A stretch of DNA of 31,908 nt from Terrimicrobiaceae bacterium. Its GTDB lineage: Bacteria > Verrucomicrobiota > Verrucomicrobiia > Chthoniobacterales > Terrimicrobiaceae. Of the stretch, positions 2,511 to 24,755 are shown in pieces. The notes beneath the pieces were generated by a model. It saw only the letters and a program-made list of their open reading frames with translations, did not search any database and was not told where the DNA came from. Position numbers and translations under genes: made by a program. Positions within the stretch are counted from its first letter, which is position 1. Each line of letters starts with the position of its first letter. The stretch is taken from positions 1 through 31,908 of the forward strand of contig JBMTBF010000001.1 of NCBI GenBank assembly GCA_049429585.1, written 5' to 3'.

Positions 2511-4712
2511 TCACAGGGACACATCGCCGAGGTAATTGCCCAGGCTGAGGGCTCGCGCTTCAGTATTAGCGCGGCCGAGGAGTTGCAGAGTGGAGCGGAT
2601 GCGGGCGGAGATTCCCATCATAGGAATACTGGTCTCGGGGGAGGTTTGCTCGAGGCGGATTTGCTGGCGAAGCCACTCCATCCATTCGTCCCAATCGCGG
2701 AGGGCTTTGTCGAGATCCTCGGTCAGGTCGGCGGGCCGACGGGCAGCGGCGAACGAATCAGAGATTTCCACAAGCCCTCGACGGAAGGCTCCCTTGACCC
2801 GCTCGATCGCTGCGCTGCCTTTTTCCAAGAAACCAGATGGGAGAATCGGGTGGAGCCGTCCGAGACAGAGCGAGAACTCCCAGCACATTTCCTGGATCGT
2901 GAGAATGAACTCTTCCAAGCGGCGAGCCTCGTCGGGCGGGCATGTCGGGCCGCGCATGGCAGCAATGGCGAGGCGGGCCTTTGCGGGAAAGAGGGTCAGC
3001 TCCGTGCGCCGCCAGAGAGGAAGACTCCACATGCCGTCATGGAGGGCCGCCACCATGGCATCGAGGTATTTTTTCACTCCTAGGCGAAGGTTGTTTTGGG
3101 GAAGTGCAGGCCACATGAGGCGTTGGGCGAGGGCGGCGATGATCGGGCCGTTAACCAAGCCGAAAAACATACCGACGATCGCTTCGAACGACACGGGCTT
3201 CTGCGCATTCAGTGACACCACGCAGGCGAGCATCATGAAAGAATAGGTGAGTGGAACGGTGATGCCGCCGGCGCGGTGAAACCAATAACCGAATAAAAAC
3301 GCCCATGCGACCATGACGGTGTTTTGGACGGCGTAAATCGCTAGCAGAGGCGTGGAGGCCAGCATGGCCAGCGAGCCCACCACCATCACAAGGGTGAAAA
3401 AAATCAACTGCCGGAACGCCGGGCGGTCACCCGATTCGTCGGGGCTGATGGCATTCAATGCTGTGAACGAATAAATGCTGAGCATCATCATTCCGCCGCC
3501 GGGAGGATTCAGCCAGTTCTCGATAATCAATCCGGCGACCACTGCAGTGCCCGCGCGGATACCGCGCTGAATCCAAGGCACGGAAGGCCAGGCAGGCGCA
3601 AGGGCGAGGCGCTCTGAGAGCGGGTAGGTTTTTGACAGATCGTTGTTGAGGGCGTCGAATTCCTTGATGAGATCGGAAAGTTCGCGAAGCAGGAGCAGGT
3701 GGGCCGACATCACGCCAGACTCCAAGGGGGCGAGTTTTTGAATCTCCGGATCGACGCGGAACTCCAAAACGAACGCGTCGAGACGGGCCCAGATTTCGGT
3801 GACGCGCGTGTTCCATTCCGCCGGCAGAGGCTTCTCATCCTCCAACGCGAGAAATCCCTCCCGAAGAAGTTGTCCGAGTTCCTCGACATTGCTTTCGAGC
3901 CGCCTGCGGATTTGCTCTGGAACGGGTTCGTGGCGGGCGAAAGATCGGACGAGAGCTGCTGCCTTGGAAATAAGTTCCACCTTTTGCGCATGGCGGCCGA
4001 TATTTTGCCGGAAGGCTTTGCTTTCCATGGCACCGAAACGCAGGAGCACTCGCATCTGCGTGGATTTGGCGGGAAAGTCCCGCAAGGTTGCGACCAAGCC
4101 GGTTTTTTCCTCTGAGAAATGCCGGATACCAAGCGTCACCGCCTCGGCGAGTTCGGCCAGCGCACTGCGGATCAGGCCGGCGAATCCATCATTCGCAAAG
4201 CGCGGGAAGATGAGCACCTGCACAACCATGCTCACCACCACCCCGAGTCCAACCTCCTCCACCCGGAGCACTGCGTAGCGTGAGGCGGTCGAGGGGTCGT
4301 TCAAGCTGTTCGAGGCCACGACTACATAAGTCATACCGACGAGGAAAAAGGCATACGGCGCGCGGGATTGACCGAACATCGCGACGGAAAACGACACCAC
4401 CACGAATGTGAGCGGAAGGTAGAGTAAGGGTGCCTGCTGAAGCGAGGAGGTCGCGAGGTAGCCAAGGGCACCGCCGACAATCGTTCCGATCAAGCGCAGG
4501 GCGGCTTTTTCCTGGACTGCACCGACGAAGCGCGCCATCGAGAGCATCAGAACGGTGAAGACAGCCCAACCCGGATACTCAAGCCGCAGGACCAGCGCAA
4601 AAAATAGCGCAACAACGACCGACACCGCCATCTGAATGCCCTGAGACACACCATCGCGGTCCACGGCATCCAGCAGGCGGGCCAATCCAAATCGCCGCAA
4701 GGTCGCTTCCAC
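2511..4712 (-). CDS. FUSC/AaeB-family inner-membrane efflux protein
   Basis: 733 aa, two hydrophobic repeat blocks each followed by soluble helical regions; WAVFTV...KAALRLIGTIVGGALG and RVEEVGLG motifs of FUSC proteins; GTG start. Confidence 0.85.
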   Translation of the reverse strand: MEATLRRFGLARLLDAVDRDGVSQGIQMAVSVVVALFFALVLRLEYPGWAVFTVLMLSMARFVGAVQEKAALRLIGTIVGGALGYLATSSLQQAPLLYLPLTFVVVSFSVAMFGQSRAPYAFFLVGMTYVVVASNSLNDPSTASRYAVLRVEEVGLGVVVSMVVQVLIFPRFANDGFAGLIRSALAELAEAVTLGIRHFSEEKTGLVATLRDFPAKSTQMRVLLRFGAMESKAFRQNIGRHAQKVELISKAAALVRSFARHEPVPEQIRRRLESNVEELGQLLREGFLALEDEKPLPAEWNTRVTEIWARLDAFVLEFRVDPEIQKLAPLESGVMSAHLLLLRELSDLIKEFDALNNDLSKTYPLSERLALAPAWPSVPWIQRGIRAGTAVVAGLIIENWLNPPGGGMMMLSIYSFTALNAISPDESGDRPAFRQLIFFTLVMVVGSLAMLASTPLLAIYAVQNTVMVAWAFLFGYWFHRAGGITVPLTYSFMMLACVVSLNAQKPVSFEAIVGMFFGLVNGPIIAALAQRLMWPALPQNNLRLGVKKYLDAMVAALHDGMWSLPLWRRTELTLFPAKARLAIAAMRGPTCPPDEARRLEEFILTIQEMCWEFSLCLGRLHPILPSGFLEKGSAAIERVKGAFRRGLVEISDSFAAARRPADLTEDLDKALRDWDEWMEWLRQQIRLEQTSPETSIPMMGISARIRSTLQLLGRANTEARALSLGNYLGDVSL

Positions 4713-4776: not shown

Positions 4777-4992
4777 GTGCCTGTCATTTTGCAAAACGCT
4801 GAGATTGCCCTAGGTGAATTCCTCCTTCCGTGGGGAATGGTTGTCAGCGCCCTCGGATTCCTTGCCGCATGGCTGGTGACTGCGGTGCTTGAGCATTTCG
4901 GACTCACTCGGTTTTTCTGGAACCTCCCGCTGTTTTTCGTCGCGCTCTCCGTCTTTTTCGGCTCGGTGCTCGGCCTGATCCTCGCCCCATGA
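4777..4992 (+). CDS. DUF1656/AaeX-like small membrane protein
   Basis: 71 aa hydrophobic, EIALGEFLLP...FFWNLPLFFVAL pattern; ATGA overlap with the following HlyD gene, as in aaeX-aaeA. Confidence 0.8.
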   Translation: MPVILQNAEIALGEFLLPWGMVVSALGFLAAWLVTAVLEHFGLTRFFWNLPLFFVALSVFFGSVLGLILAP

Positions 4993-5849
4993 AACCAGCT
5001 GGAACAGCCTATGTCCTCACGGGAGTGGTCATACTCCTCGCGGCGGTGGCCGCTTTGGGAATGTATCAACGCTACACCACAAAACCCTGGACGCGTGACG
5101 GCCAGGTGCGCGCCAACATTGTGGGCATCGCGAGCCGCGTGGAGGGACCGATCATCCAGATTCCGATCCGCGACAACCAGCAGGTGAAAAAAGGCGACCT
5201 GCTTTTCGAGGTCGATCCCTCGACCTTTCAGGCGACCGTCGATCAATGCACGGCGAAGCTCCAACAATCACAAGCTGCAGAGATCCAGGCCCAGCAAGAA
5301 CTCCAGCGCCAGACGATGCTCTACCAAACGAAAGTCAACGACCTTCGCGATCTGCAAAATGCCCAGGACTCCCTCGCCTCCGCCACGGCCGATGTTGCCG
5401 CTGCCGCCGCCGCACTCGAATACGCGAAGCTCAATCTCAGCTACACGAAAATCTTCGCTCCCGTGGACGGCTATCTCACGAACATGAATACCTCCCCCGG
5501 CACCTATGTTTACGCCGGCCAGCAACTCCTCGCGCTCGTAGATTCCTCCTCTTTTTGGATCGCCGCGTATTTCAAGGAAACCCAGCTCCAGCATGTGAAA
5601 GAGGGGGGCAAAACCAAACTCACCTTCATTGGCCGAGAGGACCAGCCTTTCGAGGGCGTCATTGAAAGCGTGGCGTGGGGGATTTTCGATCCAAATGGCT
5701 CCACCGTTCAGCTCCTGCCACAGGTCGGCCAGACGGTTGACTGGGTGCGCCTGCCGAATCGTTTCCCCGTGCGCATTCGCGTGACCGGCCAGTCGCCGAT
5801 TCCGCTGCGCATCGGACAGACCGTTTCGATCGCAACGATCGACAAGTGA
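4989..5849 (+). CDS. HlyD-family periplasmic adaptor, AaeA-like
   Basis: N-terminal anchor, PWTRDGQVRA, lipoyl-like VEGPI...VKKGDLLFEVDP, coiled-coil, IFAPVDG and DWVRLPNRFPVRI. Confidence 0.9.
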   Translation: MKPAGTAYVLTGVVILLAAVAALGMYQRYTTKPWTRDGQVRANIVGIASRVEGPIIQIPIRDNQQVKKGDLLFEVDPSTFQATVDQCTAKLQQSQAAEIQAQQELQRQTMLYQTKVNDLRDLQNAQDSLASATADVAAAAAALEYAKLNLSYTKIFAPVDGYLTNMNTSPGTYVYAGQQLLALVDSSSFWIAAYFKETQLQHVKEGGKTKLTFIGREDQPFEGVIESVAWGIFDPNGSTVQLLPQVGQTVDWVRLPNRFPVRIRVTGQSPIPLRIGQTVSIATIDK

Positions 5850-5855
5850 TTTTCC

Positions 5856-6359
5856 ATGCCCACACCGACCCTTCCCATCGAGCCAGTGATTCAGGATACG
5901 GAGGTGATTGCCTCGACAATTTCGCCGGTGCTTTTTGGCGGGCTTGTGATGATTGTGATTCTTGCAAACCACGCTTTTTTCTCGGAGTTCGTGCAATGGG
6001 TTCATCTGCGTTTCACGATGCCGATTCACGATAAGAAAGGTCTTTGGATGGCGCGTCCCTTTCTCTACCTGACAACGGTTTTGATTCTCACCTCGCATTT
6101 GGTGGATATTGTCATTTGGTCCTACGCGCTGGTCTGGAGCGGGCTTGTGAAAGACATATCGCAAGCCTTATATTTCAGCGGAAACACATACACCACATTG
6201 GGTTACGGCGCGGACATCATGCCGCCTTCCTGGAATGCCATTACCGCCGTGATCGCACTCTCGGGGATGTTTTGCATCGCTTGGACGACCTCCTTGCTCA
6301 TGAACATCATCAGCGCTTTTCACCCGCACAGGCTTACGACCCGCAAAACCAACCCCTAG
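5856..6359 (+). CDS. Minimal potassium-channel-family pore protein (Ion_trans_2-like)
   Basis: 167 aa, several TM segments, pore helix ALYFSGNTY and filter TTLGYG followed by an inner helix. Confidence 0.8.
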   Translation: MPTPTLPIEPVIQDTEVIASTISPVLFGGLVMIVILANHAFFSEFVQWVHLRFTMPIHDKKGLWMARPFLYLTTVLILTSHLVDIVIWSYALVWSGLVKDISQALYFSGNTYTTLGYGADIMPPSWNAITAVIALSGMFCIAWTTSLLMNIISAFHPHRLTTRKTNP

Positions 6360-6456
6360 CAGAATCCACCCCCCGATTCGCAAAGCAGGACGGGCTAAAC
6401 AAGATATTGCAAGGCGGGGAGATTTGATTCAAATTCCACCTTCCACAAATTCCGGC

Positions 6457-8010
6457 ATGGACAACGATCAAACCAATCCCAACAACGAAGTAATGAACGG
6501 CGACGAGGCGGCGACTTTCCTCAAAATGCCGAAATCCACGCTGCTGAAACTCTGCAGCGAAGGTCAGTTGCCCGCCGTGAAAGTCGGCCGGAATTGGCGT
6601 TTCAACCGCACCGCCCTCGAAAAGTGGAAGAGTGAAAAAGCAGGATCCGAAGTGGATTTTTCTGACGACTCCGGAGTGGTTGGCGAGCCGACACCGCTGG
6701 ATTTCGAAGAAAATCTCTCCGAAGCTGAAGCCTCTGTCGGCAAGCAGATCAAGGAAGTTGTCGGATCGGTTGGCGGGGATGATTTTGAAACAACTGGTGA
6801 TGTCGTGGAATTGGACAGCATGTCCGAAGGCGTTGGCGAAGTTCACGAAATCGAGGAAGCCCCGGCCCCGAAATCCTCCCGGCGCGCGCGTTCCTCCTCG
6901 GCCCTTGATTTGATGGCCCAGATATCCGACAAATCCCCCGGACGCCGTGGCGCTAAAACGACCCGCGCCAAGACAGCTCCGGCTCCGGCCCCTCGAACCA
7001 AACCTGCCCCGGCTTCCGCACCAGTTTCCCCTCTGCCCAAGCGCGACACCCGCCTCGATGACGGCGCGGTGGAAGTCTCTCGACCCTACAACCGCCATGC
7101 GGGTGCCGCTCCGGCGCCTCGCGCTCCAGAACGCCGCTCCTCCGGTGGAGGCGCCTTCGGCGTCCTCAAAAAAGTGGTCTACTGGGCGGTCGTGCTCGTT
7201 GTTTTGGCCATGGCCGGCGTCGGTGTGAAAAGCATGCTCGTTCCGATTTCCACCGAACCGATGGTGGGAATCTCCGAGGAGGTCGTGACAACCGAGACCC
7301 CCGCCTTGCCCGAATTCCAAGTAGTCTATCGCCACAATGAGGAGGAATCCCTGAAGGAGGACAACCTCGCGGTTCCCACGCCCCCTCCTTCGGCTCCCGA
7401 GCCGGCAGCCCCGACCGCCCCGCTGACCTCTACTGCTGCTGTGGATACCGTGGCCCTTCAAGCTCCCCCAGCTCCGCAGCAAGCTCCCCAAGCCGCTGCC
7501 GCCGCCAAAGAGGGCACACAACAACCGGCGGTTCCCATTGCCACCAACCCGCCGGTCAGCCGCAGCCTCGAGGCGATCAATCGCCTTCTCCCCGCGCTGT
7601 TCAACCTTTCCGGCACCACGGTCAACAGCAACAACAACGAAATCCGAATCACCTTTCAGGAGGGCGTCTTCTCTTCCGGAATCACGGTCAGCGAGTCGGG
7701 AAAATCCCAACTCTCGCGCGTGGCGGAATTCCTGAAGGTCAATGCCCCGGACTTCTGGGTCATCATCGAGGGCCAGACCGACAGCAAGCCGGTCCGGTCG
7801 AACTCTCCCTTCCGAGACAACTACACCCTCGGCCTTCGCCGCGCAGTGGCCGCGACCGAGGTAATGCGCTCCGAAACGCAATTCCCCAACGATCGCCTGC
7901 TCGCCAGCTCCTCAGGCGGCCTTCCGCCTCCATTCCCTGAAAACGACCCTGGATCGGCCTCGCGCAACCGCACGGTCATCCTGCGCCTCGTTCCCAGGAT
8001 TCTGGAATAG
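6457..8010 (+). CDS. HTH_17 (excisionase/MerR-like) + single TM + OmpA/MotB-like peptidoglycan-binding protein
   Basis: N-terminus MNGDEAATFLKMPKSTLLKLCSEGQLPAVKVGRNWRF; TM VVYWAVVLVVLAMAGVGV at about 7174-7227; C-terminus IIEGQTD...NYTLGLRRA...RNRTVILRL. The ATG at 6457 is preferred over the track's 6424. Confidence 0.85.
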   Translation: MDNDQTNPNNEVMNGDEAATFLKMPKSTLLKLCSEGQLPAVKVGRNWRFNRTALEKWKSEKAGSEVDFSDDSGVVGEPTPLDFEENLSEAEASVGKQIKEVVGSVGGDDFETTGDVVELDSMSEGVGEVHEIEEAPAPKSSRRARSSSALDLMAQISDKSPGRRGAKTTRAKTAPAPAPRTKPAPASAPVSPLPKRDTRLDDGAVEVSRPYNRHAGAAPAPRAPERRSSGGGAFGVLKKVVYWAVVLVVLAMAGVGVKSMLVPISTEPMVGISEEVVTTETPALPEFQVVYRHNEEESLKEDNLAVPTPPPSAPEPAAPTAPLTSTAAVDTVALQAPPAPQQAPQAAAAAKEGTQQPAVPIATNPPVSRSLEAINRLLPALFNLSGTTVNSNNNEIRITFQEGVFSSGITVSESGKSQLSRVAEFLKVNAPDFWVIIEGQTDSKPVRSNSPFRDNYTLGLRRAVAATEVMRSETQFPNDRLLASSSGGLPPPFPENDPGSASRNRTVILRLVPRILE

Positions 8011-8019
8011 TCGCGCCCG

Positions 8020-9252
8020 CTACTTTTTGATTCTCAAGCGTAGGAAGGTGGGGACATCCAAATCCTCGCCTTCCACGATGGTAGGCTCGCTTTTTTCGAA
8101 ACGGCCGCGGGCGATGGGTTCCAACGGGAGGAAGTCCTGCTTCACCTTTTGGGTTTTTGTCGATGGAACCGCGGGCTCCGCTGCGGATGGCATTTCCTCG
8201 CGTGGCGGCGCCAAACTTGGCACGGGGACACTGGCTTCCGGCTTGGCTTCAATCGGCAAGGCGGGCGGGAGGCAGGGCTTTTTTTCCTCAACCCCGGTGC
8301 GTCCGATAATCGTCACAATCAGCGGCGCGGAGTCATCCCCCGCCGTGCCGACTCCCAGACAGAGATTCGCGCCAGCGGCTGTGCTTTTGGAAATCCCGTT
8401 CATCACGGCGGACACCTCCGCGAATGTCAGCGATGAGGGCCCCGAGAGATGGACGAGAATTTTTCCAGCCTCTTGAAGGAGGCGCCCCCTGTCGAGCAAC
8501 GGACTGCGAAGAGCCTGCTCCAAAGCCTCATGGGCGCGGTTTGCACCCTCCGACTCGCCACACCCCAACAGGCACCCTCCCTTGGTCGCACGCAGGACCG
8601 TGAGGACGTCGTTGAGGGCAATCGGCACCGGTCCCGGGCTTCCGAGAATCCTGACGAGGCCGCCAATGGCTTGGAATAAAAGTCCATCACAAGCCGCGAA
8701 AGTCTCGGCGACATCGGCCCGGGGCTCGACGAGTTCGGCCATTCGGTCGTTCTCGAAATGCACCAGGGCATCAGCATGCTTCACCAGCTCGGAAAGCGAC
8801 TCACCGGCTTGTTGAGTGCGTCGGCGTCCCTCGAATTGGAAAGGCGATGTGACCACCGCCGAGACGAGAGCCCCCTTGTCCTTCGCCATTTTGGCAAGCA
8901 GGGGAACAATCGCGCTGGCCGTGCCTCCACCGAGCCCACCGCAAAGAATCACAACATCGGCTCCGGAGACGACCTGTTGAAGATCGCCAAGCGATTCCCT
9001 CGCGGCATCGATCGCTCGCTCCGGATCCCCCCCAGCTCCAAGCCCGTGGGTCGTCATCGGGCCGAGAACCAGTTTCTGCGCTGCGACCGAGGCGGCAAGC
9101 GATTGCTGGTCGGAGTTCAACGCCACGGTGTGAACTGACAAAGCGGCGCGCATGGTAAGCCGGTCCGTGATGTTCACGCCCGCGTTACCGATTCCAATAA
9201 GCCGGATCACAGACTCCTTGGCGGGTTCCTGATAGCGTGGATAGGGGCTCAT
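8020..9252 (-). CDS. ftsZ: Cell division protein FtsZ (divergent)
   Basis: GLGAGGDPE, PFQFEGRRR, END, SPLL and the C-terminal DLDVPTFLR peptide; last gene of the dcw cluster, after ftsA. Confidence 0.95.
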   Translation of the reverse strand: MSPYPRYQEPAKESVIRLIGIGNAGVNITDRLTMRAALSVHTVALNSDQQSLAASVAAQKLVLGPMTTHGLGAGGDPERAIDAARESLGDLQQVVSGADVVILCGGLGGGTASAIVPLLAKMAKDKGALVSAVVTSPFQFEGRRRTQQAGESLSELVKHADALVHFENDRMAELVEPRADVAETFAACDGLLFQAIGGLVRILGSPGPVPIALNDVLTVLRATKGGCLLGCGESEGANRAHEALEQALRSPLLDRGRLLQEAGKILVHLSGPSSLTFAEVSAVMNGISKSTAAGANLCLGVGTAGDDSAPLIVTIIGRTGVEEKKPCLPPALPIEAKPEASVPVPSLAPPREEMPSAAEPAVPSTKTQKVKQDFLPLEPIARGRFEKSEPTIVEGEDLDVPTFLRLRIKK

Positions 9253-11398: not shown

Positions 11399-12321
11399 CG
11401 TGCGCTACCCTTGGCGGAAAGCGAAAGCCCCGCGATCTCCTCGCAAAGCGACGCGAAATCCAAGCCCGCCACGGCGGCGGCTTTAGGTAAAAGACTCGTT
11501 TCCGTCATGCCGGGGATGGTGTTGACCTCAAGAACGATCGGCTTGTTGGCCACATCGAGCAAAACATCCACGCGCGAGTAGACCTCCAATCCCAGCGAGC
11601 GATGTGCAGCGAGAGCCGCGGCTTGCACGGCCCGCGCGACATCCTCGTCGAGGCGCGCTGGGCAGAAGTAGTCCGAGTTGCCCTTTGTGTATTTGTTCTC
11701 GTAGCTGTAGAAATCAACCTTGGGAACGATTTCCACGACCGGCAGCGCCTCGTCTCCCACAATTCCCACTGTCAGTTCCCGGCCACGCACGAACTGTTCG
11801 ATCAGCACCTCGCTGTCGCGGGAGAAACAATCCTCCAGCGCTGGAGAGACTTCCTCCGGGGTTTGAACAATGTGAACCCCGACACTGGATCCCTCTCGGG
11901 GTGGCTTGGCGACGAAAGGAAGAGGGATCGACGGCTTGTCTCCAGCGCAAAGAATCTCCCATTTCGCATTCGGCACACCTGCCGCGTCGAATTTCTTCTT
12001 GCTGGCAATCTTGTCGAAGGCCAAGCGGCTTCCCGCCTCGCCTTCGCCGGTATAGGGAACCCCTAGACGGTCGAGGATGCCCTGTAATTCGCCGTCCTCG
12101 CCAAAAGTCCCGTGAATCATGTTGAACGCCAGGTCGGATTTTTCCGGGAGTTGAAAATCAGGACCGGTCACATCGATCTCCACGACCTCAGCCCCCACGG
12201 ATCGAAGCGCCTTGGCAACGGCCGCGCCGGAGTTCAATGAAACAGGCCGTTCCTTGCCGGGTCCGCCCATGAGAAGAGCAACCTTTTTGCCTTGCAGGAT
12301 TCCGGAATGATTTTTCTTCAT
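11395..12321 (-). CDS. ddl: D-alanine--D-alanine ligase
   Basis: HGTFGEDG, EGSSVGV, FYSYENKY (Tyr omega loop, D-Ala-D-Ala type), LEVNTIPGMTETSLLP. Confidence 0.97.
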   Translation of the reverse strand: MKKNHSGILQGKKVALLMGGPGKERPVSLNSGAAVAKALRSVGAEVVEIDVTGPDFQLPEKSDLAFNMIHGTFGEDGELQGILDRLGVPYTGEGEAGSRLAFDKIASKKKFDAAGVPNAKWEILCAGDKPSIPLPFVAKPPREGSSVGVHIVQTPEEVSPALEDCFSRDSEVLIEQFVRGRELTVGIVGDEALPVVEIVPKVDFYSYENKYTKGNSDYFCPARLDEDVARAVQAAALAAHRSLGLEVYSRVDVLLDVANKPIVLEVNTIPGMTETSLLPKAAAVAGLDFASLCEEIAGLSLSAKGSAR

Positions 12322-14606
12322 AAATCGACCCCCGTGATTTGGACCTCGGTTTGTAGCTGGATGCCTCGCTTCTCTTCCGCGACATGCTGGATTTCACGGA
12401 TAAGCGCGAGGATGTCCGCCGCGCTGGCACCGCCATCGTTGACGATGAAGTTGCCGTGGACCTCGGACACGCGGGCCGCACCAACCGAGCGGTTTTTCAG
12501 ACCGAGTTCCTCGATCAGTCGACCGGCCGGAATTTCAGCGGGGTTTTTGAAAATACATCCCGCGCTGGCGGCGACAGGTTGACTGGAGCGACGCTTGGAA
12601 ACCGAGGCCGCAATCGCGGAATCGATCTGGACCGCGCTCCCGGGCTGGCCGCGCAGAACGGCGGACAGCGCGAAGTTCTGCCTGAACATCGGAACATTCC
12701 GGTAGTGAACATCCATTTCGGCGGGGGTTTTTGTGAAAATATTCCCATCCTGATCGCAATAGCGCACACGCACGACCTGATCGAAGGTCTGGATTCCCAT
12801 GGCGCCGGCGTTCATGCGAAGCCCGCCTCCGAGGTTTCCTGGAATTCCCTCCATCCATTCGAAACCGGCGATTCCCGCGCCCCGCGCGAGAGCCGTGAGT
12901 TGTTTGAATTTCACGCCGACACCGGCGGTGATTTCCATTCCATGAATTTCGTGGTTTGCGAATTCGCCGCGTGCCAGATGTGCCACAACACCCGGAATCC
13001 CGCCATCGCGCACGAGAAGGTTGGAGCCTCGCCCCATGACCATCAGTGGCATGTTGTCGTCGAAGCAAAACCTCACGAGGTCGGCAAAACCCTCCTCGGT
13101 TTCAGGTTCCGCCCAAAATTGCGCCGGGCCACCCACACGCATCGTCGTGTGTTTGGCAAGGGGCTCGTAAAGTTTGATCCGGCCCGCCCCCATGACCTCC
13201 AAAAGGCGGTCGCGGGTTTTTAGATCGACGGCTAGACGGCTTCCGGCCTCGTGGATATTTCCAGCTCCAAGACTCAGAACGAGGTCGCCGTCCTCGAGAA
13301 TCGCACCAACCGCCTCATGGATTCTTGAAACCTTGGGAACAAACTTCACCGACGGATGGCCATTCGCCGCGACGGCATCGACAATCGTCTGTCCGGTGAC
13401 ACCGGGGATTGGCAATTCGCTTGCGGGATAAATGTCTGAAACAAAAACATGATCGGCTTTTTGGAACGCCATTCCAAAAAGGTCTTTCAAAGCCTGGGTC
13501 CGCGTGAACCGGTGTGGCTGGAACATGACGATTACGCGCTTGTTCGGCCCGGTACGGGCGGTGGCAATCGTGGCGGCGATTTCGGTTGGATGGTGGCCAT
13601 AGTCGTCGACCACGATCTGGCGCGGGCTGCCGTAGAGAATCTCGAACCGGCGACGCGCTCCACGAAAGGTTTCCAGTGCAGCGCTGATTTTTTCAAATGG
13701 AACACCGATCTCGGAGGCGAGGGCGATCGCGGCGAGGGCATTCAGGGCGTTGTGCGCGCCGGGAATGTTGAGAATCACCTCTCCAAGGATTTCGTTGTTC
13801 CGTTGAACCCGAAAGTAGGAGCAGAAATTTTTTGTCGCCAAATCCACAAGCCGATATCGCGCGGACGGTGAATGGCCATAGGAAATAGCCCGAGGATTTC
13901 CGGATACAACACGGGAGGCCCCGTTGTCATCGGCGCAGTAGAAAATGTTTCCCGAGGTTTGCGAAACCAGGCGTTCGTAAACGGCGTCGATCGCCTCGAG
14001 ATTCTCGTAGTAATCCAAATGCTCGGGCTCGATGTTGAGCACGATCGCATGGCGTGGATGGTAGTTCACCAGAGTCCCGTCGCTCTCATCCCCCTCGGCG
14101 ACAAAATAGATTCCTTCCGAATCCCAGCGGGCATTCGTACCGAGGATCGGAATTTCGGCGCCAACATAGTGAGAGGGCTTGAGCCCCCCGGCGCGGAGGA
14201 GGTGGGCAGCCATCGCCGAGGTGGTTGTCTTGCCGTGCATTCCGCAAACCACGATGCCCTGTTTCGAGGCCATTATTGCCGCCAAGGCGTCCGCGCGGCG
14301 AACCATTGGAATCCCCAGGCGCACCGCCTCGTCATAGGCGGGATTTCCCGTCCGGATGGCGGAGGAATAAACCACGAGATTCACACCCCGAACGCATTCG
14401 GCGGTGTGAGGACAAGAAAAGCGGAGACCCTTTTTGGAAAGCCGCTCTACCTCGACGGTGTCGACTTTGTCGGAACCGCCAACATCATGGCCCAGCCCGA
14501 GGAGAAGCGCGGCGATCCCGCTCATGCCGGAACCCGCCACACCGATGAGATGGATTTTTGCCGGAGCGGGGCCGGCCAGAAGGCCATGGAGTTTTTCAGC
14601 CTTCAT
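12318..14606 (-). CDS. murC-murB: Fused MurC (N-terminal) - MurB (C-terminal)
   Basis: 762 aa single ORF. MurC motifs GVAGSGMSG, GMHGKTTTS, EGDESDG, DDYGHHPTE, GAGNI; MurB motifs HTTMRVGGPA, GIPGNLGGGLRMNAGA, SAGCIFKNP, HGNFIVN. Confidence 0.97.
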   Translation of the reverse strand: MKAEKLHGLLAGPAPAKIHLIGVAGSGMSGIAALLLGLGHDVGGSDKVDTVEVERLSKKGLRFSCPHTAECVRGVNLVVYSSAIRTGNPAYDEAVRLGIPMVRRADALAAIMASKQGIVVCGMHGKTTTSAMAAHLLRAGGLKPSHYVGAEIPILGTNARWDSEGIYFVAEGDESDGTLVNYHPRHAIVLNIEPEHLDYYENLEAIDAVYERLVSQTSGNIFYCADDNGASRVVSGNPRAISYGHSPSARYRLVDLATKNFCSYFRVQRNNEILGEVILNIPGAHNALNALAAIALASEIGVPFEKISAALETFRGARRRFEILYGSPRQIVVDDYGHHPTEIAATIATARTGPNKRVIVMFQPHRFTRTQALKDLFGMAFQKADHVFVSDIYPASELPIPGVTGQTIVDAVAANGHPSVKFVPKVSRIHEAVGAILEDGDLVLSLGAGNIHEAGSRLAVDLKTRDRLLEVMGAGRIKLYEPLAKHTTMRVGGPAQFWAEPETEEGFADLVRFCFDDNMPLMVMGRGSNLLVRDGGIPGVVAHLARGEFANHEIHGMEITAGVGVKFKQLTALARGAGIAGFEWMEGIPGNLGGGLRMNAGAMGIQTFDQVVRVRYCDQDGNIFTKTPAEMDVHYRNVPMFRQNFALSAVLRGQPGSAVQIDSAIAASVSKRRSSQPVAASAGCIFKNPAEIPAGRLIEELGLKNRSVGAARVSEVHGNFIVNDGGASAADILALIREIQHVAEEKRGIQLQTEVQITGVDL

Positions 14607-16884: not shown

Positions 16885-17679
16885 TCAGGGAATGGCGAGT
16901 TTTTGCCCGATCTTCAACTTCCGGGGATCGTCGATATTGTTGGCTTTCATCAACGCCTCCTGGGTGACTTTGAATTTCTTCGCGATCGAATACGGGTTGT
17001 CGCCTTTCGCCACGACATAGGACTGGCCTCCAGCGGAGGATTTATCTGTAGCCGGTGCGGCAGGCGCTGGAGCCGGCGGTGCCTCGGGAGCGGTTTTTGC
17101 AACCACGGGTTGAACGGGTGCGGGTTTGGCTACGATTGAGGGTGTGGCCTGTGATGCGGGAACCGGCGCGGAATTGGCCGAGGGTGTAGCCGATACTTTT
17201 CCGACGACAAGAACCTGACCCGTCCGGATGATCGAAGTGCTCGAGAGGTTGTTGGCTTTTTCCAGCGCCTCGATGCTTGTTTTGAATTTTGAGGCGATTT
17301 TTTTGAGCGTGTCGCCCGCCACCACCGTGTAGGTCTGCACAGTGGCCTCGACGGGTTTGACGACAGATGCGGCAGGCTTGGCTTCTGCCATGGGTTCGGG
17401 AGCTTTTTCCGCAATCACCGGAGCGGACTCCTTCTTTGCGGCAATCGGTTTCGCGGAGCTTTCCTTCAGTTTGTTGAATCCGTAGATGCCGGCTACCGCT
17501 ACGACATGAAGGACAAGAACAACGATGAACGCTTGGGAGAGCTTCATGCTTGGCTCAGCCTCGGATTCATATTCCTCGATTTCATCTCGGCTCGATGCCG
17601 CGCGGGCGTGGAGTCTTTTGCGTGGAACCAAACGGCGGTTTGGAAGCTGTGGAGCGGGTTTGTTTTTTTTGAACAGCAT
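16885..17679 (-). CDS. Membrane-anchored protein with two LysM domains
   Basis: N-terminal TM (AFIVVLVLHVVAVAGIYGF); LysM repeats YTVVAGDTLKKIA...GQVL and YVVAKGDNPYSIA...GQKL separated by Pro/Ala linkers. Confidence 0.92.
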   Translation of the reverse strand: MLFKKNKPAPQLPNRRLVPRKRLHARAASSRDEIEEYESEAEPSMKLSQAFIVVLVLHVVAVAGIYGFNKLKESSAKPIAAKKESAPVIAEKAPEPMAEAKPAASVVKPVEATVQTYTVVAGDTLKKIASKFKTSIEALEKANNLSSTSIIRTGQVLVVGKVSATPSANSAPVPASQATPSIVAKPAPVQPVVAKTAPEAPPAPAPAAPATDKSSAGGQSYVVAKGDNPYSIAKKFKVTQEALMKANNIDDPRKLKIGQKLAIP

Positions 17680-20148: not shown

Positions 20149-21515
20149 TAGTTCCGGAGATGTTCGAAGAGGGTTTCCATGCGGGCGGAGCGACTGCCCT
20201 TCACAAGGACGAGATCCCCGGGTCGCGCGAGTTGTGAAAGCATTCTGGCGGCGGCGGCCGTGTCCTCGACCTCGTGAATGCGTCCGAGTCCCGATTCCCG
20301 CGCTGCGGCGGAGATCGAGGAGGCATCCGCTCCGACAGTGAAAAGAATATCGGCCCAGCGCGCGGCGGCTTGCCCCACGCGGCGGTAGCCTTCACCGGCG
20401 TGCTCGCCGAGTTCCCCCATTTTTCCCAGAACGGCGATGCGGCGCCCGCTTCCTGGAACGAGGCGAAGGGTGCTCAATGCCGCCTCCATGGATTCGGGAT
20501 TCGCATTGTAGCTGTCGTCGAGATAGGTGACGCCAGCGATGGTTTTTTGTTCTAGCCGACCCCCGACGAGGCGCGCCTTGGCAAGTCCCTTGACCCCCTT
20601 TTCGAGGGGAACCCCCATCTCCAATCCAGCGGCCAGCGCGAGAAGTGCGTTTTGAACCATGTGGGTTCCGTGAACCCCGATGGAGGCGGAAATTTTCGCG
20701 CCATCGCGAATGACGGTGAAATTCGTTCCTTCAGACGTGGATTGAATATCCGTCGCCACGAGGTCGCCTTTGGCCACTCCTGTCCGAACCACCTTGGCGC
20801 AACAGCGCGCGGCGATTGCATCGGTTTTGTCATCCTCGGCAGGAAGAACAACGGCTCCACCGGCGGGCACGGCCTCGGCAAGCATGCCTTTTTCCAACGC
20901 GATCGCGTCGCGCGTTTTCATGTATTCGATGTGCGCGGTGCCGATATTGGTAATGATCGCACAAGCAGGCTGGATCATTTTAGCCAGGGGAGCGATTTCA
21001 CCTGGATGGTTCATTCCGACTTCCCAGACGGCTGCTTCGGCTTCAGAACCCGCCGAGAGGATCGAAAGCGGAACGCCGATGTGGTTGTTCAGATTTCCCT
21101 CGGTTTTGACGACGCGGTATTTCGAGCCAAGAACGGCGGCAGCGAATTCCTTGGTGCTCGTTTTGCCACTGCTGCCGGTGATTCCAAGCACGCGGAGCTT
21201 CAAGCGGGAACGCCATGCGGCGGCCAGGCTGGCGAGGGCTTCCAGGCTGTCTTTTGCCAGAATTACCGGGTGGGTGGCGGCGAGTTTTTCTGCGATCGTC
21301 GGCGAGTCGAGCAAAGCGGCGGCCGCGCCAAGTTCAAATGCATGCGAAGCAAACTCGTTTCCGTCGAATGTTTCACCGCGAATGCCGATGTAGAGGTCGC
21401 CGGGCTTGATGGTTCGGGTGTCCTTGTTGAAACGCGAAACCATGGCGCTTGTATCCGGCCCTATCAGAGCGGCTCCAGCCATGGCCGCAATTTCCCGCAG
21501 CGGTAAAGGGTCCAT
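20148..21515 (-). CDS. murF: MurF ligase
   Basis: ITGSSGKTSTKE, NLNNHIGVP, EVGMNHPGEI, DDSYNANPES, VKGSR. Confidence 0.97.
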   Translation of the reverse strand: MDPLPLREIAAMAGAALIGPDTSAMVSRFNKDTRTIKPGDLYIGIRGETFDGNEFASHAFELGAAAALLDSPTIAEKLAATHPVILAKDSLEALASLAAAWRSRLKLRVLGITGSSGKTSTKEFAAAVLGSKYRVVKTEGNLNNHIGVPLSILSAGSEAEAAVWEVGMNHPGEIAPLAKMIQPACAIITNIGTAHIEYMKTRDAIALEKGMLAEAVPAGGAVVLPAEDDKTDAIAARCCAKVVRTGVAKGDLVATDIQSTSEGTNFTVIRDGAKISASIGVHGTHMVQNALLALAAGLEMGVPLEKGVKGLAKARLVGGRLEQKTIAGVTYLDDSYNANPESMEAALSTLRLVPGSGRRIAVLGKMGELGEHAGEGYRRVGQAAARWADILFTVGADASSISAAARESGLGRIHEVEDTAAAARMLSQLARPGDLVLVKGSRSARMETLFEHLRN

Positions 21516-22987
21516 CAGGCGTCGCCTCCTTTCTTGTCAGAGATGGCACGGGCTGCAACGGCAACATCGTCGAAGGGAACCTTTCGGTCTGCGAATTCCT
21601 GCGTCTTTTCGTGTCCCTTGCCCGCAATCAAAACAATGTCCCCCGGGCCGGCCAACTCCACCGCCCGGCGGATGGCCTGCTCGCGATCCACGATTTTTTC
21701 GTGGGTTCGGCGAGCAAGGCCCTTCTCCATTTCATTCAAAATCGCCTCCGGATCCTCGCTACGGGGATTGTCCGATGTCAGAATGAGATGGTCGGCCAAA
21801 ACCTCGCCGGCATTAGCCATCAAGGGACGCTTCGCACGGTCTCGATCGCCTCCGCACCCGAAGACGGCGATCAATCTCGCCGGACCGGCATCGCGGAGGG
21901 TCTGGAGGACATTTCTCAAGGCGTCATCGGTGTGAGCGTAATCCACAAAAACCTGGAAATTGCGGCGCGACGGGACGCGTTCGACTCGACCAGGAACCTG
22001 GGGTGCATCGGCAAGGGCGTCGATCGCACGGCGGAGTTCGACACCGCAGGTCATCGCGGCCGCGAGGGCTCCGAGGACATTGTAGACATTGAATAGACCG
22101 ATGAGCGGTGTGCGGACGAGGTAACTCTTGCCCCGCGCCTCGAGGGCGAATCGCGTGCCATGCAAATCCTGGCGGATCGAACTTGCCCGGAATTCCGCAT
22201 GGACATTCTGCCCGAATGTGACGGTTTTGATTTTTTTGGAAATGCGGTCGATGAGGCGTTGGCCGAAGCGGTCGTCGGAATTCACCACCGCGCGCGCCTT
22301 TTTGGTTTTCTGCTCCGCAAGGGCCTCAAACCATTTCGCCTTCGCCTCGAAGTAGGCGTCCATGGAACCGTGGTAGTCCAGATGGTCCTGAGTGAGATTG
22401 GTGAAAATACCTGCGTCGAATTCAACGCCCCGCACCCGGTGTTGAACCACCGCGTGGCTTGAAACCTCCATGGCGACCGAGCGTCCCCCCTTGTCGCGAA
22501 TTTCGGCGAGGATTTGCTGGAGGTCGATCGACTCGGGAGTGGTGTGCGGGGCGGGACGCTCCTCACCGGCCACGACATATTTCACAGTTCCAATCAAACC
22601 GGGGCGCTGGCCCGCCGCGTCGAAAATGTGCTTCACCAGATACGCGCTCGTGGTTTTGCCATTGGTTCCGGTGACGCCCACGCATTTGAGGTCCCGGTCG
22701 GGATGGTCGTAAAATTCCGCCGCGATATCGGCCATGGCGGCGCGGGCCTTCTCGACAACAACGACTGGGCAATCCGAGCCGGGATCCGCATTTTCAGCGA
22801 CCACAGCGGACGCTCCGCGCTCCACAGCTTGAGCAACGAATTTCGCGCCGTCGGATTTCGCACCGGGCAGTGCGAAAAAAAGGCACCCCGGCTTCGCCAG
22901 ACGGGAGTCTTGGCAAAGCGAGGAAATATCGGGGTCGGCCAAGCCGGGGGCTATTCCCGAGGCTTGGAGAAGGGCACGGAGTCGCAT
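21515..22987 (-). CDS. murE: MurE ligase (meso-DAP type)
   Basis: DSR, GVTGTNGKTT, HTTPES, MEVSSH, DHLDYH, DYAHT, DNPR (meso-DAP specificity motif), GKGHE. The ATG at 22987 lies just after the ftsI stop. Confidence 0.96.
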   Translation of the reverse strand: MRLRALLQASGIAPGLADPDISSLCQDSRLAKPGCLFFALPGAKSDGAKFVAQAVERGASAVVAENADPGSDCPVVVVEKARAAMADIAAEFYDHPDRDLKCVGVTGTNGKTTSAYLVKHIFDAAGQRPGLIGTVKYVVAGEERPAPHTTPESIDLQQILAEIRDKGGRSVAMEVSSHAVVQHRVRGVEFDAGIFTNLTQDHLDYHGSMDAYFEAKAKWFEALAEQKTKKARAVVNSDDRFGQRLIDRISKKIKTVTFGQNVHAEFRASSIRQDLHGTRFALEARGKSYLVRTPLIGLFNVYNVLGALAAAMTCGVELRRAIDALADAPQVPGRVERVPSRRNFQVFVDYAHTDDALRNVLQTLRDAGPARLIAVFGCGGDRDRAKRPLMANAGEVLADHLILTSDNPRSEDPEAILNEMEKGLARRTHEKIVDREQAIRRAVELAGPGDIVLIAGKGHEKTQEFADRKVPFDDVAVAARAISDKKGGDA

Positions 22988-22991
22988 GGGA

Positions 22992-24755
22992 TCAGCGCGT
23001 GGCCTCCTGGGCATCGAGCGATGCGGTGACTGGGTCGGGTTGCAGGGCGATGGCCGGTTCGGTCGGCACAAGATCGAGGTGACGGGCGGAGCGCTCTGCG
23101 ATGCGTGAGAAAATCGGCGCGGCGACGAGACCGCCGTAGTTGAGACCCGAGGAAACTTGGGCGTCATCCACCATCACAAGACAAACAAACCTTGGATCCT
23201 CGGCGGGCATGTAACCCACAAACGAAACGACATATTTTCCCGGCGCGTAGCCGCCCTTGTCGCTGACTTTTTGAGCTGTTCCGGTTTTGCCGGCGACATT
23301 GAATCCATTGACCCGCGCGAATGTCGCAGTGCCGCCGGGCTGTGTGACCGCCGCGAGGGCGTTGCTGATGAAGTGCGCTGTTTTTTCAGGAACGACCTCG
23401 CGGACGACCTTGGGCTGGTGGCGGTCAATACCGCCCGCCTGATCCTCGACTGACTTCACAATTTGGGGCGCCATGAGTTTTCCGCCGTTGGCGATGACCG
23501 ACATTCCCATGGTAATCTGAAGCGGAGTGACAGCCACGGAATGGCCCATCGGCATGCGGGTGATGGTGAGTTTGTCCCAGCGGGACGGCGGGTGGACGAG
23601 TCCCGGAATTTCCCCGGGAAGCTCGATACCGAGGCGGTCCCCGAACCCGAAGCGTTTGACATACTCGTGGAATTTTTCGCCACCCATCATCATCGCCATT
23701 TTCGCGCACCCGATGTTCGAGGATTTCACCAGAATCTCGTGCACGCTCATGTGTCCGTAGCCGTGGTGGTCCTTGAGAGTCCGGCCACCATAAAAATACC
23801 GGCCGTTCTCGCAGAAGATGGATGATGTTTCATCCACCTTACCCTCGTTCAAAGCACCTGCGGCAACGACAATCTTGAAAGTCGATCCCGGCTCGACCAT
23901 GTCGATGATCGATCGGTTTTTCATCGTCTCGGGATCGGATTTTCCGGGGGTGTTGGGATCGAAACAGGGGCGGCTGGCCATCGCGAGGATTTCGCCCGTT
24001 TTAGGATCCACCATAATGGCGTTGACGGTATTCGGCTTGAGGTCGCGGTAGGTCGCGTCGATCTCCTCCTCGAGGATTGCCTGGAGACCCATGTCGATTG
24101 TGAGGCGGATGTTTTTGCCGTGCTGCGGCTCCTGCTCCTGGCCCCGGTAGAGAACAATCTCGCGGCCGGTGCGGTCGCGCTCGGTGAAACGAAAACCATC
24201 CTCGCCGGCGAGCGCCTTTTCCATCGTCCGTTCGATCCCTTGAACACCCTTGCGCTCGTGGTTCAGGTATCCGAGGACATGGCCGAGCATCGGGCCATTT
24301 GGATAAGAGCGAATCGAATCCACCTCGGTGTAAACTCCGCGCAGATTGCGATCCCGCATTTCGGCTTGGAGTTTGAGGACTGTTGCGTCCGGCACTTTGC
24401 GTTTGAGGACAAGGTATTTGCCGCCCGTAGCGATTTTTTGCGCTACCTCCTCGCGCTTGAGTTCGAGAAACCGGGCGACGAGATCGGACACCTGCTCGGC
24501 ATCCTTGATGTGCGAGGCATCGGCGAAGACCGTGTGCACCGGCAAGTTGACGGCAAGCTTGTCGCCATTCCGGTCCAGAATCAAACCGCGCTTGGCGGGA
24601 ATCACCTGGCGGACGGTGTTTTTTTCTGCCGCGATGCGCGAGTATTCCTCGTGCTTTCCGACATGCAGATCAACGAGACGCGAGGAGACGATGGTGAATA
24701 CCAAGGCACCCGCACCGCAGGCCCAGGCGATTCGCATCCTCTCCGGTTTCCTCAC
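22992..24755 (-). CDS. ftsI: Class B penicillin-binding protein (FtsI/PBP3)
   Basis: PAKRGLILDRNG dimerisation domain; transpeptidase motifs STFK, SSN and KTG(TAQK); position after ftsL. Confidence 0.93.
   Translation of the reverse strand: MRKPERMRIAWACGAGALVFTIVSSRLVDLHVGKHEEYSRIAAEKNTVRQVIPAKRGLILDRNGDKLAVNLPVHTVFADASHIKDAEQVSDLVARFLELKREEVAQKIATGGKYLVLKRKVPDATVLKLQAEMRDRNLRGVYTEVDSIRSYPNGPMLGHVLGYLNHERKGVQGIERTMEKALAGEDGFRFTERDRTGREIVLYRGQEQEPQHGKNIRLTIDMGLQAILEEEIDATYRDLKPNTVNAIMVDPKTGEILAMASRPCFDPNTPGKSDPETMKNRSIIDMVEPGSTFKIVVAAGALNEGKVDETSSIFCENGRYFYGGRTLKDHHGYGHMSVHEILVKSSNIGCAKMAMMMGGEKFHEYVKRFGFGDRLGIELPGEIPGLVHPPSRWDKLTITRMPMGHSVAVTPLQITMGMSVIANGGKLMAPQIVKSVEDQAGGIDRHQPKVVREVVPEKTAHFISNALAAVTQPGGTATFARVNGFNVAGKTGTAQKVSDKGGYAPGKYVVSFVGYMPAEDPRFVCLVMVDDAQVSSGLNYGGLVAAPIFSRIAERSARHLDLVPTEPAIALQPDPVTASLDAQEATR

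Follow-up and report, generated by a model that had tools for sequence, protein, structure and literature searches.

To our knowledge, the bacterial links between DNA and the cell envelope described so far are either indirect (RacA-DivIVA, ParB-PopZ, ParA-HubP) or end at the membrane (Noc and the ToxR-type regulators). Here we examine a gene from a Terrimicrobiaceae bacterium (Verrucomicrobiota) that encodes a helix-turn-helix (HTH) domain, a single transmembrane (TM) helix and an OmpA-like domain in one polypeptide. The gene occupies positions 6457–8010 of the forward strand of a stretch of 31,908 nucleotides (assembly GCA_049429585.1, contig JBMTBF010000001.1, positions 1–31,908), which we call the window, and its product (P0001) has 517 residues, with a TAG stop at 8008–8010. 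We tentatively read this product as a DNA-binding protein that is tethered in the membrane and immobilized on the wall, serving as a regulator or as a tether. Each of the two domains is well known, and so is the bitopic layout; it is their combination that is new and uncharacterized. In the literature searched, we found no description of a protein that combines HTH_17 with an OmpA-like domain, nor of a wall-anchored ParB, which agrees with an earlier reading of this DNA made from its letters alone (the original prediction).

Domain architecture

All the parts named in the original prediction (HTH, linker, TM helix, Pro/Ala-rich spacer and OmpA-like domain) are present. An AlphaFold2 model based on a 34-sequence family alignment contains a confident winged HTH at residues 12–62, a TM helix at 234–261 and an OmpA-like domain at 369–513 (predicted local distance difference test, pLDDT, >90), together with low-confidence helices at 83–94 and 149–159, the rest being disordered. 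Mean column conservation is 0.88 for the HTH (12–62), 0.71 for the TM helix (237–262) and 0.75 for the OmpA-like domain (360–513), and it is comparably high for four short motifs, which we refer to as B (98–120; 0.77), D (147–160; 0.85), E (200–212; 0.79) and F (282–295; 0.86), while the intervening segments have values of 0.42–0.57.

The N-terminal domain (6490–6642, residues 12–62; net charge +5) is a winged HTH of the excisionase/BldC/RacA/MerR type according to Pfam, AlphaFold2 and fold matches. HTH_17 (PF12728) was the single family found in a Pfam scan of the protein (residues 16–60, E = 1.7e-12, 47.8 bits against a Pfam cut-off of 27), with neither an XRE-type HTH nor Trans_reg_C (the OmpR/PhoB winged helix) matched, and the NCBIfam model TIGR01764 ("excise") was matched at 44.8 bits against a cut-off of 28.8. 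PHROG also returns an excisionase-type match for this domain, and mad1-HTH and the excisionase type are its only matches in defence and phage libraries. The modelled fold consists of two helices, a beta-hairpin wing and a C-terminal helix (pLDDT about 90). A structural search with residues 10–66 returned the excisionase RdfS (Z 7.2) and BldC on DNA (Z 7.0, root-mean-square deviation (rmsd) 1.5), as well as Xis proteins and MerR-family regulators. Foldseek with the N-terminal model returned RdfS, Xis and the DNA complexes of NmlR, RacA (5i44, rmsd 2.3) and BldC, at E-values (0.016–0.1, rmsd 1.3–2.4) that are weak, as expected for a domain of ~50 residues. The fold neighbours are DNA binders almost throughout, several of them solved on DNA, and the HTH sequence is near-invariant across the family; from these matches and models, we infer that the domain binds DNA. 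A region search with residues 1–70 for long proteins outside the family that share the HTH gave family members only. Over its first 84 residues, a metagenomic protein of 280 residues (P0118) matches the HTH of the family together with the beginning of the linker (62% identity), and its remainder resembles an unrelated enzyme; it may be a chimera of assembly or a recombinant.

Between the HTH and the membrane lies a predicted cytoplasmic linker of ~170 residues that is first acidic and then basic. The acidic part (6643–6894, residues 63–146; net charge −16) is disordered, with a weak helix at 83–94, and contains motif B (6748–6816). Motif D (6895–6936) is a short conserved helix (149–158, pLDDT about 70) in which S148, A149, L152, M153, I156 and S157 are invariant. 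It is followed by a basic, Pro-rich disordered segment (6937–7155, residues 161–233), within which motif E (7054–7092) has an invariant AVE.SRP; proline makes up 23% of residues 161–199, and residues 147–236 carry a net charge of +9. Judged by its conservation, the linker is not featureless and appears as a string of short motifs (98–120, 147–160 and 200–212), which are probably binding sites for partner proteins or modulators of the HTH. A second AlphaFold2 model, of residues 1–236, agrees with the first (helices at 84–92 and 149–158, pLDDT 55–70), and no packing of the linker motifs against the HTH was seen in it.

The single TM helix (7156–7242, residues 234–262) is supported by both the AlphaFold2 helix and the sole hydropathy peak of the protein. 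Because RR..KK precedes the hydrophobic segment (about residues 233–262) and acidic residues come after it, the N-terminus is expected to be cytoplasmic; the original prediction had likewise noted one TM helix preceded by basic residues, and the topology logic holds. An A-G-x-G motif is conserved in the helix, and no Asp or Glu was found inside it in the seven diverse family members checked.

Beyond the membrane, the juxtamembrane motif F (7300–7341; P.LPEFQVVY.HN) is followed by a Pro/Ala-rich spacer (7342–7548, residues 296–364) that is poorly conserved and varies in length, and then by the predicted peptidoglycan-binding domain, an OmpA-like domain of the MotB/PomB type (7549–7995, residues 365–513). 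A structural search with residues 365–515 returned the MotB-like DVU_2228 (Z 17.8, rmsd 2.6, 148 residues aligned), MotS (17.2), PomB (16.9) and Helicobacter pylori MotB (16.2), further YfiB, wall anchors of the type VI secretion system and ZorB (13.4); Pal, OmpA and OprF also match the fold (Z 10–13), as does RmpM (within the overall range of Z 10–18). Other searches agree: H. pylori MotB was found by Foldseek (E = 1e-8), PomB (3e-5) and also MotB by sequence comparison with the PDB, and the OmpA part of TssL (3.9e-11), then MotB, MotD, MotS and Pal, by NCBIfam models on the C-terminus, and ZorB/MotB match weakly in the defence and phage libraries. The anchor is of the MotB subtype, with an extra N-terminal helix. 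Within it, D442 (7780–7782, in GQTD, residues 439–442) and R462 (7840–7842, in LGLRRA, residues 458–463) are residues that we take to be the equivalents of D271 and R286, the meso-diaminopimelate (meso-DAP) contacts of Acinetobacter baumannii OmpA, an equivalence that is motif-based and involves no residue-level superposition. R462, the Arg of the x-R-A motif, is invariant across the family clusters, as is NRTV. The MurE encoded in the window (21515–23167, minus strand) has DNPR at residue 466, the meso-DAP-type signature, so the original prediction was correct in calling the local MurE DAP-type. Sequence and model both suggest that the periplasmic domain binds peptidoglycan. A resemblance of residues 360–388 (7534–7620; PIA..PPV...LEAINRLLPAL), which precede and enter the first helix of the OmpA-like domain, to a single repeat of transcription activator-like effectors (TALE) was rejected as an artefact because the individual repeat matches are all insignificant (per-repeat E of 4 to >1000); the E-values of 1e-13 to 1e-16 against TALE structures in the PDB are sums over many repeats.

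The open frame that covers the gene extends from 6424 to 8010, with an in-frame TTG at 6424 as an alternative start upstream. We consider the ATG at 6457 to be the true start, since homologues all begin at the equivalent Met and the TTG lies between the two hexamers of a conserved promoter-like element (see below).

Distribution and related anchors

The full-length gene was found in 36 species-level genomes, publicly labelled as freshwater metagenome-assembled genomes of Terrimicrobiaceae, Spartobacteria or Chthoniobacter, and in about 90 protein clusters. Overall, 97 protein clusters match the family (lowest identity, 41%), nearly all of them full length and with the parts in the same order. 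A profile search found a single full-length copy in 19/19 sampled genomes of the window's genus (not counting the window's own), and no match at E ≤ 1e-5 in 61 genomes from 15 other genera of the family. The cultured relative Terrimicrobium lacks the gene, and no full-length copy was seen in 200 genomes of the order and 300 of the phylum. When 1.8 billion representatives were searched exhaustively, only four or five full-length clusters at 50% identity came up, the other matches covering the C-terminal part only or an HTH only. The member present in UniProt/AFDB carries only the name "OmpA-like domain-containing protein."

The original prediction had raised the possibility that the two domains are separate genes in relatives; they are instead joined, at full length, in the 36 genomes above. 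One apparent split copy, P0095 (424 residues, HTH only), was rejected as a sequencing-frameshift artefact; the LpxK and S8 protease genes of its contig are fragmented too. The remaining short matches are fragments on contigs of 1–2 kb. By this distribution, the gene is neither a chance fusion nor an assembly error. Because every sampled genome of one abundant freshwater genus has it in a single copy while the sampled sister genera lack it, and because ParB_N versions of the protein stand beside ParA (see below), the data suggest a lineage-specific function rather than an accident of domain joining.

The closest anchor modules (37–41% identity) belong to proteins of 320–360 residues that have a cytoplasmic TPR head, one TM helix and the same anchor. 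In the anchor tree, all members with an HTH fall into one clade (100/100), which has these TPR-headed proteins as its sister group (98/97). Other heads on related anchors are GYF plus a coiled coil, and ParB_N. The ParB_N-TM-OmpA-like proteins (P0194, P0243 and P0244) come from other classes of Verrucomicrobiota, with 29–35% identity in the anchor; P0244, for example, has a ParB N-terminal peptide of the LGRGL type, a GxxRxxA ParB_N box, a TM helix and the anchor. These relatives were located through genome loci rather than by word search, which for P0194 gave no relatives at 1e-10 among the matches listed. Their genes (L005:763–2061, L004:928–1956 and L126:6001–7767; also in L008–L010 and L013) directly follow a ParA/AAA_31 ATPase gene in 5/11 genome loci and in NCD32325.1 (L126). 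The same genomes also keep a canonical ParB. From its sequence and position, the ParB_N-headed anchor with its ParA looks like a second, wall-anchored ParA/ParB-like pair. The MotB-like anchor thus appears to be a reusable module that fixes diverse cytoplasmic heads to the wall, some of them of the DNA-partition type, which lends indirect support to a DNA-to-wall role for the version with an HTH.

Upstream element and genomic context

A promoter-like element at 6396–6435 consists of an A-tract, a −35 hexamer (TTGCAA, 6407–6412), a 17-nucleotide T-tract spacer and a −10-like hexamer (CAAATT, 6430–6435). It is kept about 22 nucleotides before the ATG in 36/36 loci, whatever the neighbours (at least five gene neighbourhoods), with TTGCAA or TTGCAT as the first hexamer (TTGC being invariant) and with a second hexamer whose second position is always A and whose sixth is always T. 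Because the same element travels with the gene through all contexts, the gene is an autonomous unit. The sequence resembles a sigma-70-type promoter whose −10 is weak, with a predicted transcript 5′ end near 6442, and a simple sigma-70 scanner did not call it; a sigma-54 reading of TTGCA was rejected, as the −24 GG is absent (by eye). The gene is also present in RNA libraries: short contigs from four metatranscriptome studies match it with 0–2 mismatches, none of them upstream of 6462, and contigs from two RNA libraries (7896–8124) bridge its end and the 3′ end of the convergent ftsZ, which points to transcripts that overlap or read through, or else to DNA carry-over.

The surroundings of the gene were compared across 35 loci with usable sequence. 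As the original prediction had noted, only 9 bp separate the stop of the gene (8008–8010) from that of ftsZ (8020–8022) in the window, the two genes being convergent. An ftsZ directly downstream, also convergent, occurs in 7/35 loci and lies 2 kb away in one more, all of them in one clade of the protein tree (100/99). Another clade (16 loci) has a divergent GHMP-kinase-lpxK pair upstream and an S8 protease (subtilase) gene downstream, and the remaining loci have PFK/Hsp20, CHAD, DUF6580 or glycosyltransferase neighbours; the protein tree follows these stable synteny clades. We therefore rejected a functional linkage to ftsZ: the adjacency is confined to one clade (8–9 of the 35 loci), the orientation is convergent and at least four other contexts are found elsewhere. 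Since no neighbour is kept family-wide in the contexts examined, the adjacency is uninformative on function, and the connection to ftsZ and a divergent FtsZ drawn by the original prediction is not supported.

Upstream in the window are genes for a K+ channel-like protein (5856–6359, plus strand), an HlyD-type protein (4989–5849) and a FUSC-type exporter (2511–4712, minus strand), whereas close relatives carry ychF upstream. The K+ channel-like protein (167 residues) has an Ion_trans_2 domain and a TLGYG filter; its gene follows the HlyD-type gene and faces the exporter. Downstream is a division and cell wall (dcw) gene cluster, which ends with ftsZ. This cluster also encodes a MurC-MurB fusion of 762 residues (12318–14606, minus strand; Mur ligase domains, FAD_binding_4 and MurB_C) and, beside murD, a 264-residue protein with two LysM domains (16885–17679, minus strand).

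Proposed role and alternatives

We propose that the gene product is bitopic, crossing the inner membrane once from a cytoplasmic N-terminus. Its MotB-like periplasmic domain, probably dimeric as in MotB-type domains, would hold meso-DAP peptidoglycan non-covalently and so fix the protein in place, with the Pro-rich spacer spanning the gap from membrane to wall. At the end of its flexible linker, the excisionase/BldC/RacA-type HTH would bind DNA in the cytoplasm, and DNA as well as any partners of the linker would be held at a wall-fixed point of the envelope. Between the two forms such a protein could take, we lean slightly toward a site-specific, membrane-retained regulator (the logic of ToxR and CadC) over a structural chromosome-to-envelope tether (the logic of RacA, Noc or HubP); for a regulator, the gene's own conserved promoter would be the first candidate target. 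A DNA-to-wall tether or trans-envelope regulator is plausible, and the idea gains indirect support because nearly all fold neighbours of the HTH, including RacA, bind DNA and because related anchors carry ParB_N beside ParA.

Several observations count against this interpretation. CbpM, a MerR-like fold that binds protein, is among the fold neighbours of the HTH. The lack of a conserved neighbour in the contexts examined leaves no hint at a target. A position weight matrix of the 48-nucleotide element scores 36.8 bits on itself and 17.3 bits, the level of shuffled sequence, at the next match in genome G000, and hence no second significant site, as a regulon would have, was found in the 72%-complete genome. 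On the periplasmic side, the window copy does not reach E ≤ 1 with the Pfam OmpA family (PF00691) and is unlisted in a six-frame search of G000, although the orthologue in G414 passes (30 bits against 27.2) and many homologues carry the domain. The original prediction had stated that the DAP-binding Asp and Arg are kept; this stands for D442 and R462 in the window protein and for the invariant Arg, but in a census of 94 family clusters the GQTD position was Asp in 75, Asn in 16 and Ser in 3, meaning that the DAP-contacting Asp is replaced in 19/94. Finally, the RNA contigs are weak evidence that the gene is expressed, as they cannot show transcript starts and may stem from DNA contamination.

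More far-reaching, and doubtful in our estimate, is the idea that the protein crosses the inner membrane to connect DNA directly and physically with peptidoglycan and is one of a wider, undescribed class in Verrucomicrobiota with DNA-handling heads (HTH_17 here; ParB_N with a ParA-like ATPase elsewhere). If so, specific chromosomal sites or partition complexes would be pinned to fixed points of the sacculus, where they could serve to position or segregate the chromosome or in nucleoid occlusion. As for the significance of the protein in general, no DNA-to-envelope link described so far would be simpler than one polypeptide that extends from DNA as far as the sacculus. It would also provide a wall-fixed reference point for chromosome organization or gene control in a lineage of the Planctomycetes-Verrucomicrobia-Chlamydiae (PVC) group about whose cell biology little is known, with the limits that the organisms are uncultured and that the family is confined to one genus.

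Alternatively, the HTH could bind a protein, and the product would then connect a cytoskeletal, divisome or ParA-type protein, rather than DNA, to the wall. There is precedent in the HTH of RodZ, which binds MreB, and in CbpM, which binds CbpA, and the presence of CbpM among the fold neighbours fits, as do the conserved short linker motifs, which are typical of partner binding, and the adjacency to ftsZ in one clade. Motif D also loosely resembles the N-terminal ParA-contact peptide of ParB in P0194 and P0244, over a very short stretch. However, the HTH is of the HTH_17 family and not of RodZ's XRE type, its closest fold neighbours are DNA-bound proteins, and synteny with mreB, ftsZ or parA is not conserved. 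A replacement of RodZ would be consistent with the genus, which has MreB and no detectable RodZ_C, yet the sister genera likewise have MreB and no detectable RodZ_C and do so without the gene. An orphan ParA of the genus was considered as the partner and rejected, since only one ParA-type ATPase was found in genome G243. Altogether, we regard a scaffold of this kind as unlikely.

Proteolytic release strikes us as more improbable. Here, the form held in wall and membrane would be latent, and an envelope signal would lead to cleavage near the membrane on its periplasmic side and then within the TM helix, so that the HTH and linker would be set free to regulate transcription in soluble form. Such cleavage is how many bitopic regulators and anti-sigma factors act, and the conserved motif F, the A-G-x-G in the TM helix and the subtilase gene that follows in one clade would suit it. 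On the other hand, no protease partner is conserved across contexts, nothing in the present data indicates cleavage, and the TPR, GYF or ParB_N heads on related anchors suggest that anchoring itself matters.

MotB, PomB, MotS and ZorB are the best structural matches of the anchor and would point to a stator-like subunit that is driven by ions (akin to MotB, ZorB or TolR) and works with a MotA-like channel partner, but this we judge very unlikely. It is contradicted by the TM helix, which is free of Asp and Glu in every member checked; MotB_plug was unmatched in the Pfam scan, and no MotA, ZorA or ExbB-like gene was identified beside the gene in the window or in any context examined, its neighbours being the K+ channel-like gene, ftsZ and genes for YchF, LpxK, S8 protease, PFK, CHAD and others in place of a motA/pomA-type gene.

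An artefact (chance fusion, assembly error, shadow reading frame or mobile-element excisionase), for which one could cite the excisionase family of the HTH and an overlapping antisense open reading frame of 515 codons, is refuted for practical purposes by the same full-length architecture in 36 genomes from many studies, the single copy in every genome sampled from the genus, the match between protein tree and stable synteny clades, the presence of Pfam domains on the plus strand only and the lack of an integrase among its annotated neighbours in the window. The antisense frame itself (6334–7881, minus strand; 515 residues) is without domain evidence and is conserved merely as a shadow of the plus-strand gene in a GC-rich stretch.

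Relation to described systems

Viewed as a wall-immobilized DNA-binding protein, the product shares parts with several known systems and coincides with none of those compared here. Like MotB, PomB, MotS and DVU_2228, it has a single TM helix with the N-terminus predicted inside, a periplasmic spacer and an OmpA-like domain with an extra N-terminal helix (Z 16–18, 129–148 residues aligned), but it lacks their TM Asp, plug and MotA partner and has a cytoplasmic HTH region of ~230 residues where they have a short tail. To the long form of TssL (DotU-TM-OmpA) only the OmpA part corresponds, the full models scoring far below their cut-offs (TIGR03350, 43 bits against 139.8; PRK07033, 32 against 520).

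RodZ offers the same sequence of cytoplasmic HTH, linker, single TM helix and periplasmic domain; its MreB-binding HTH is of the XRE type, however, and its periplasmic domain is RodZ_C, and neither family matches the window protein. ToxR, CadC and TcpP similarly hold a DNA-binding domain at the inner membrane through one TM helix and have a periplasmic sensor domain, but theirs are OmpR-type winged helices with short linkers, sensors that do not bind peptidoglycan and target genes that lie adjacent. BldC, Xis and RdfS resemble the N-terminal domain in being small MerR-like winged HTHs without an effector domain, and differ in being small, soluble proteins that bind cooperatively to repeats.

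Among proteins that connect the chromosome to the envelope, RacA of Bacillus subtilis has a MerR-like winged HTH fold and ties DNA to an envelope landmark. It is soluble and reaches the membrane via DivIVA and a coiled coil, whereas the window protein is predicted to be integral and to have a wall anchor of its own; the likeness is at the level of fold, with no sequence-level homology shown. Noc compares in that its function needs simultaneous binding of DNA and membrane, which it achieves with a ParB-type domain and an amphipathic helix. HubP/FimV proteins have a peptidoglycan-binding domain and a TM helix, and through a long acidic stretch in the cytoplasm they recruit ParA-type proteins and hence the chromosome origin, although they are LysM-based and have no DNA binding of their own. 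The ParB_N-TM-OmpA-like proteins differ in their ParB_N head, in belonging to other classes and in not being the sister group in the anchor tree, a place taken by the TPR-headed proteins, but they share with the window protein a TM helix and a MotB-like anchor of the same kind, joined to a head of the DNA-partition type.

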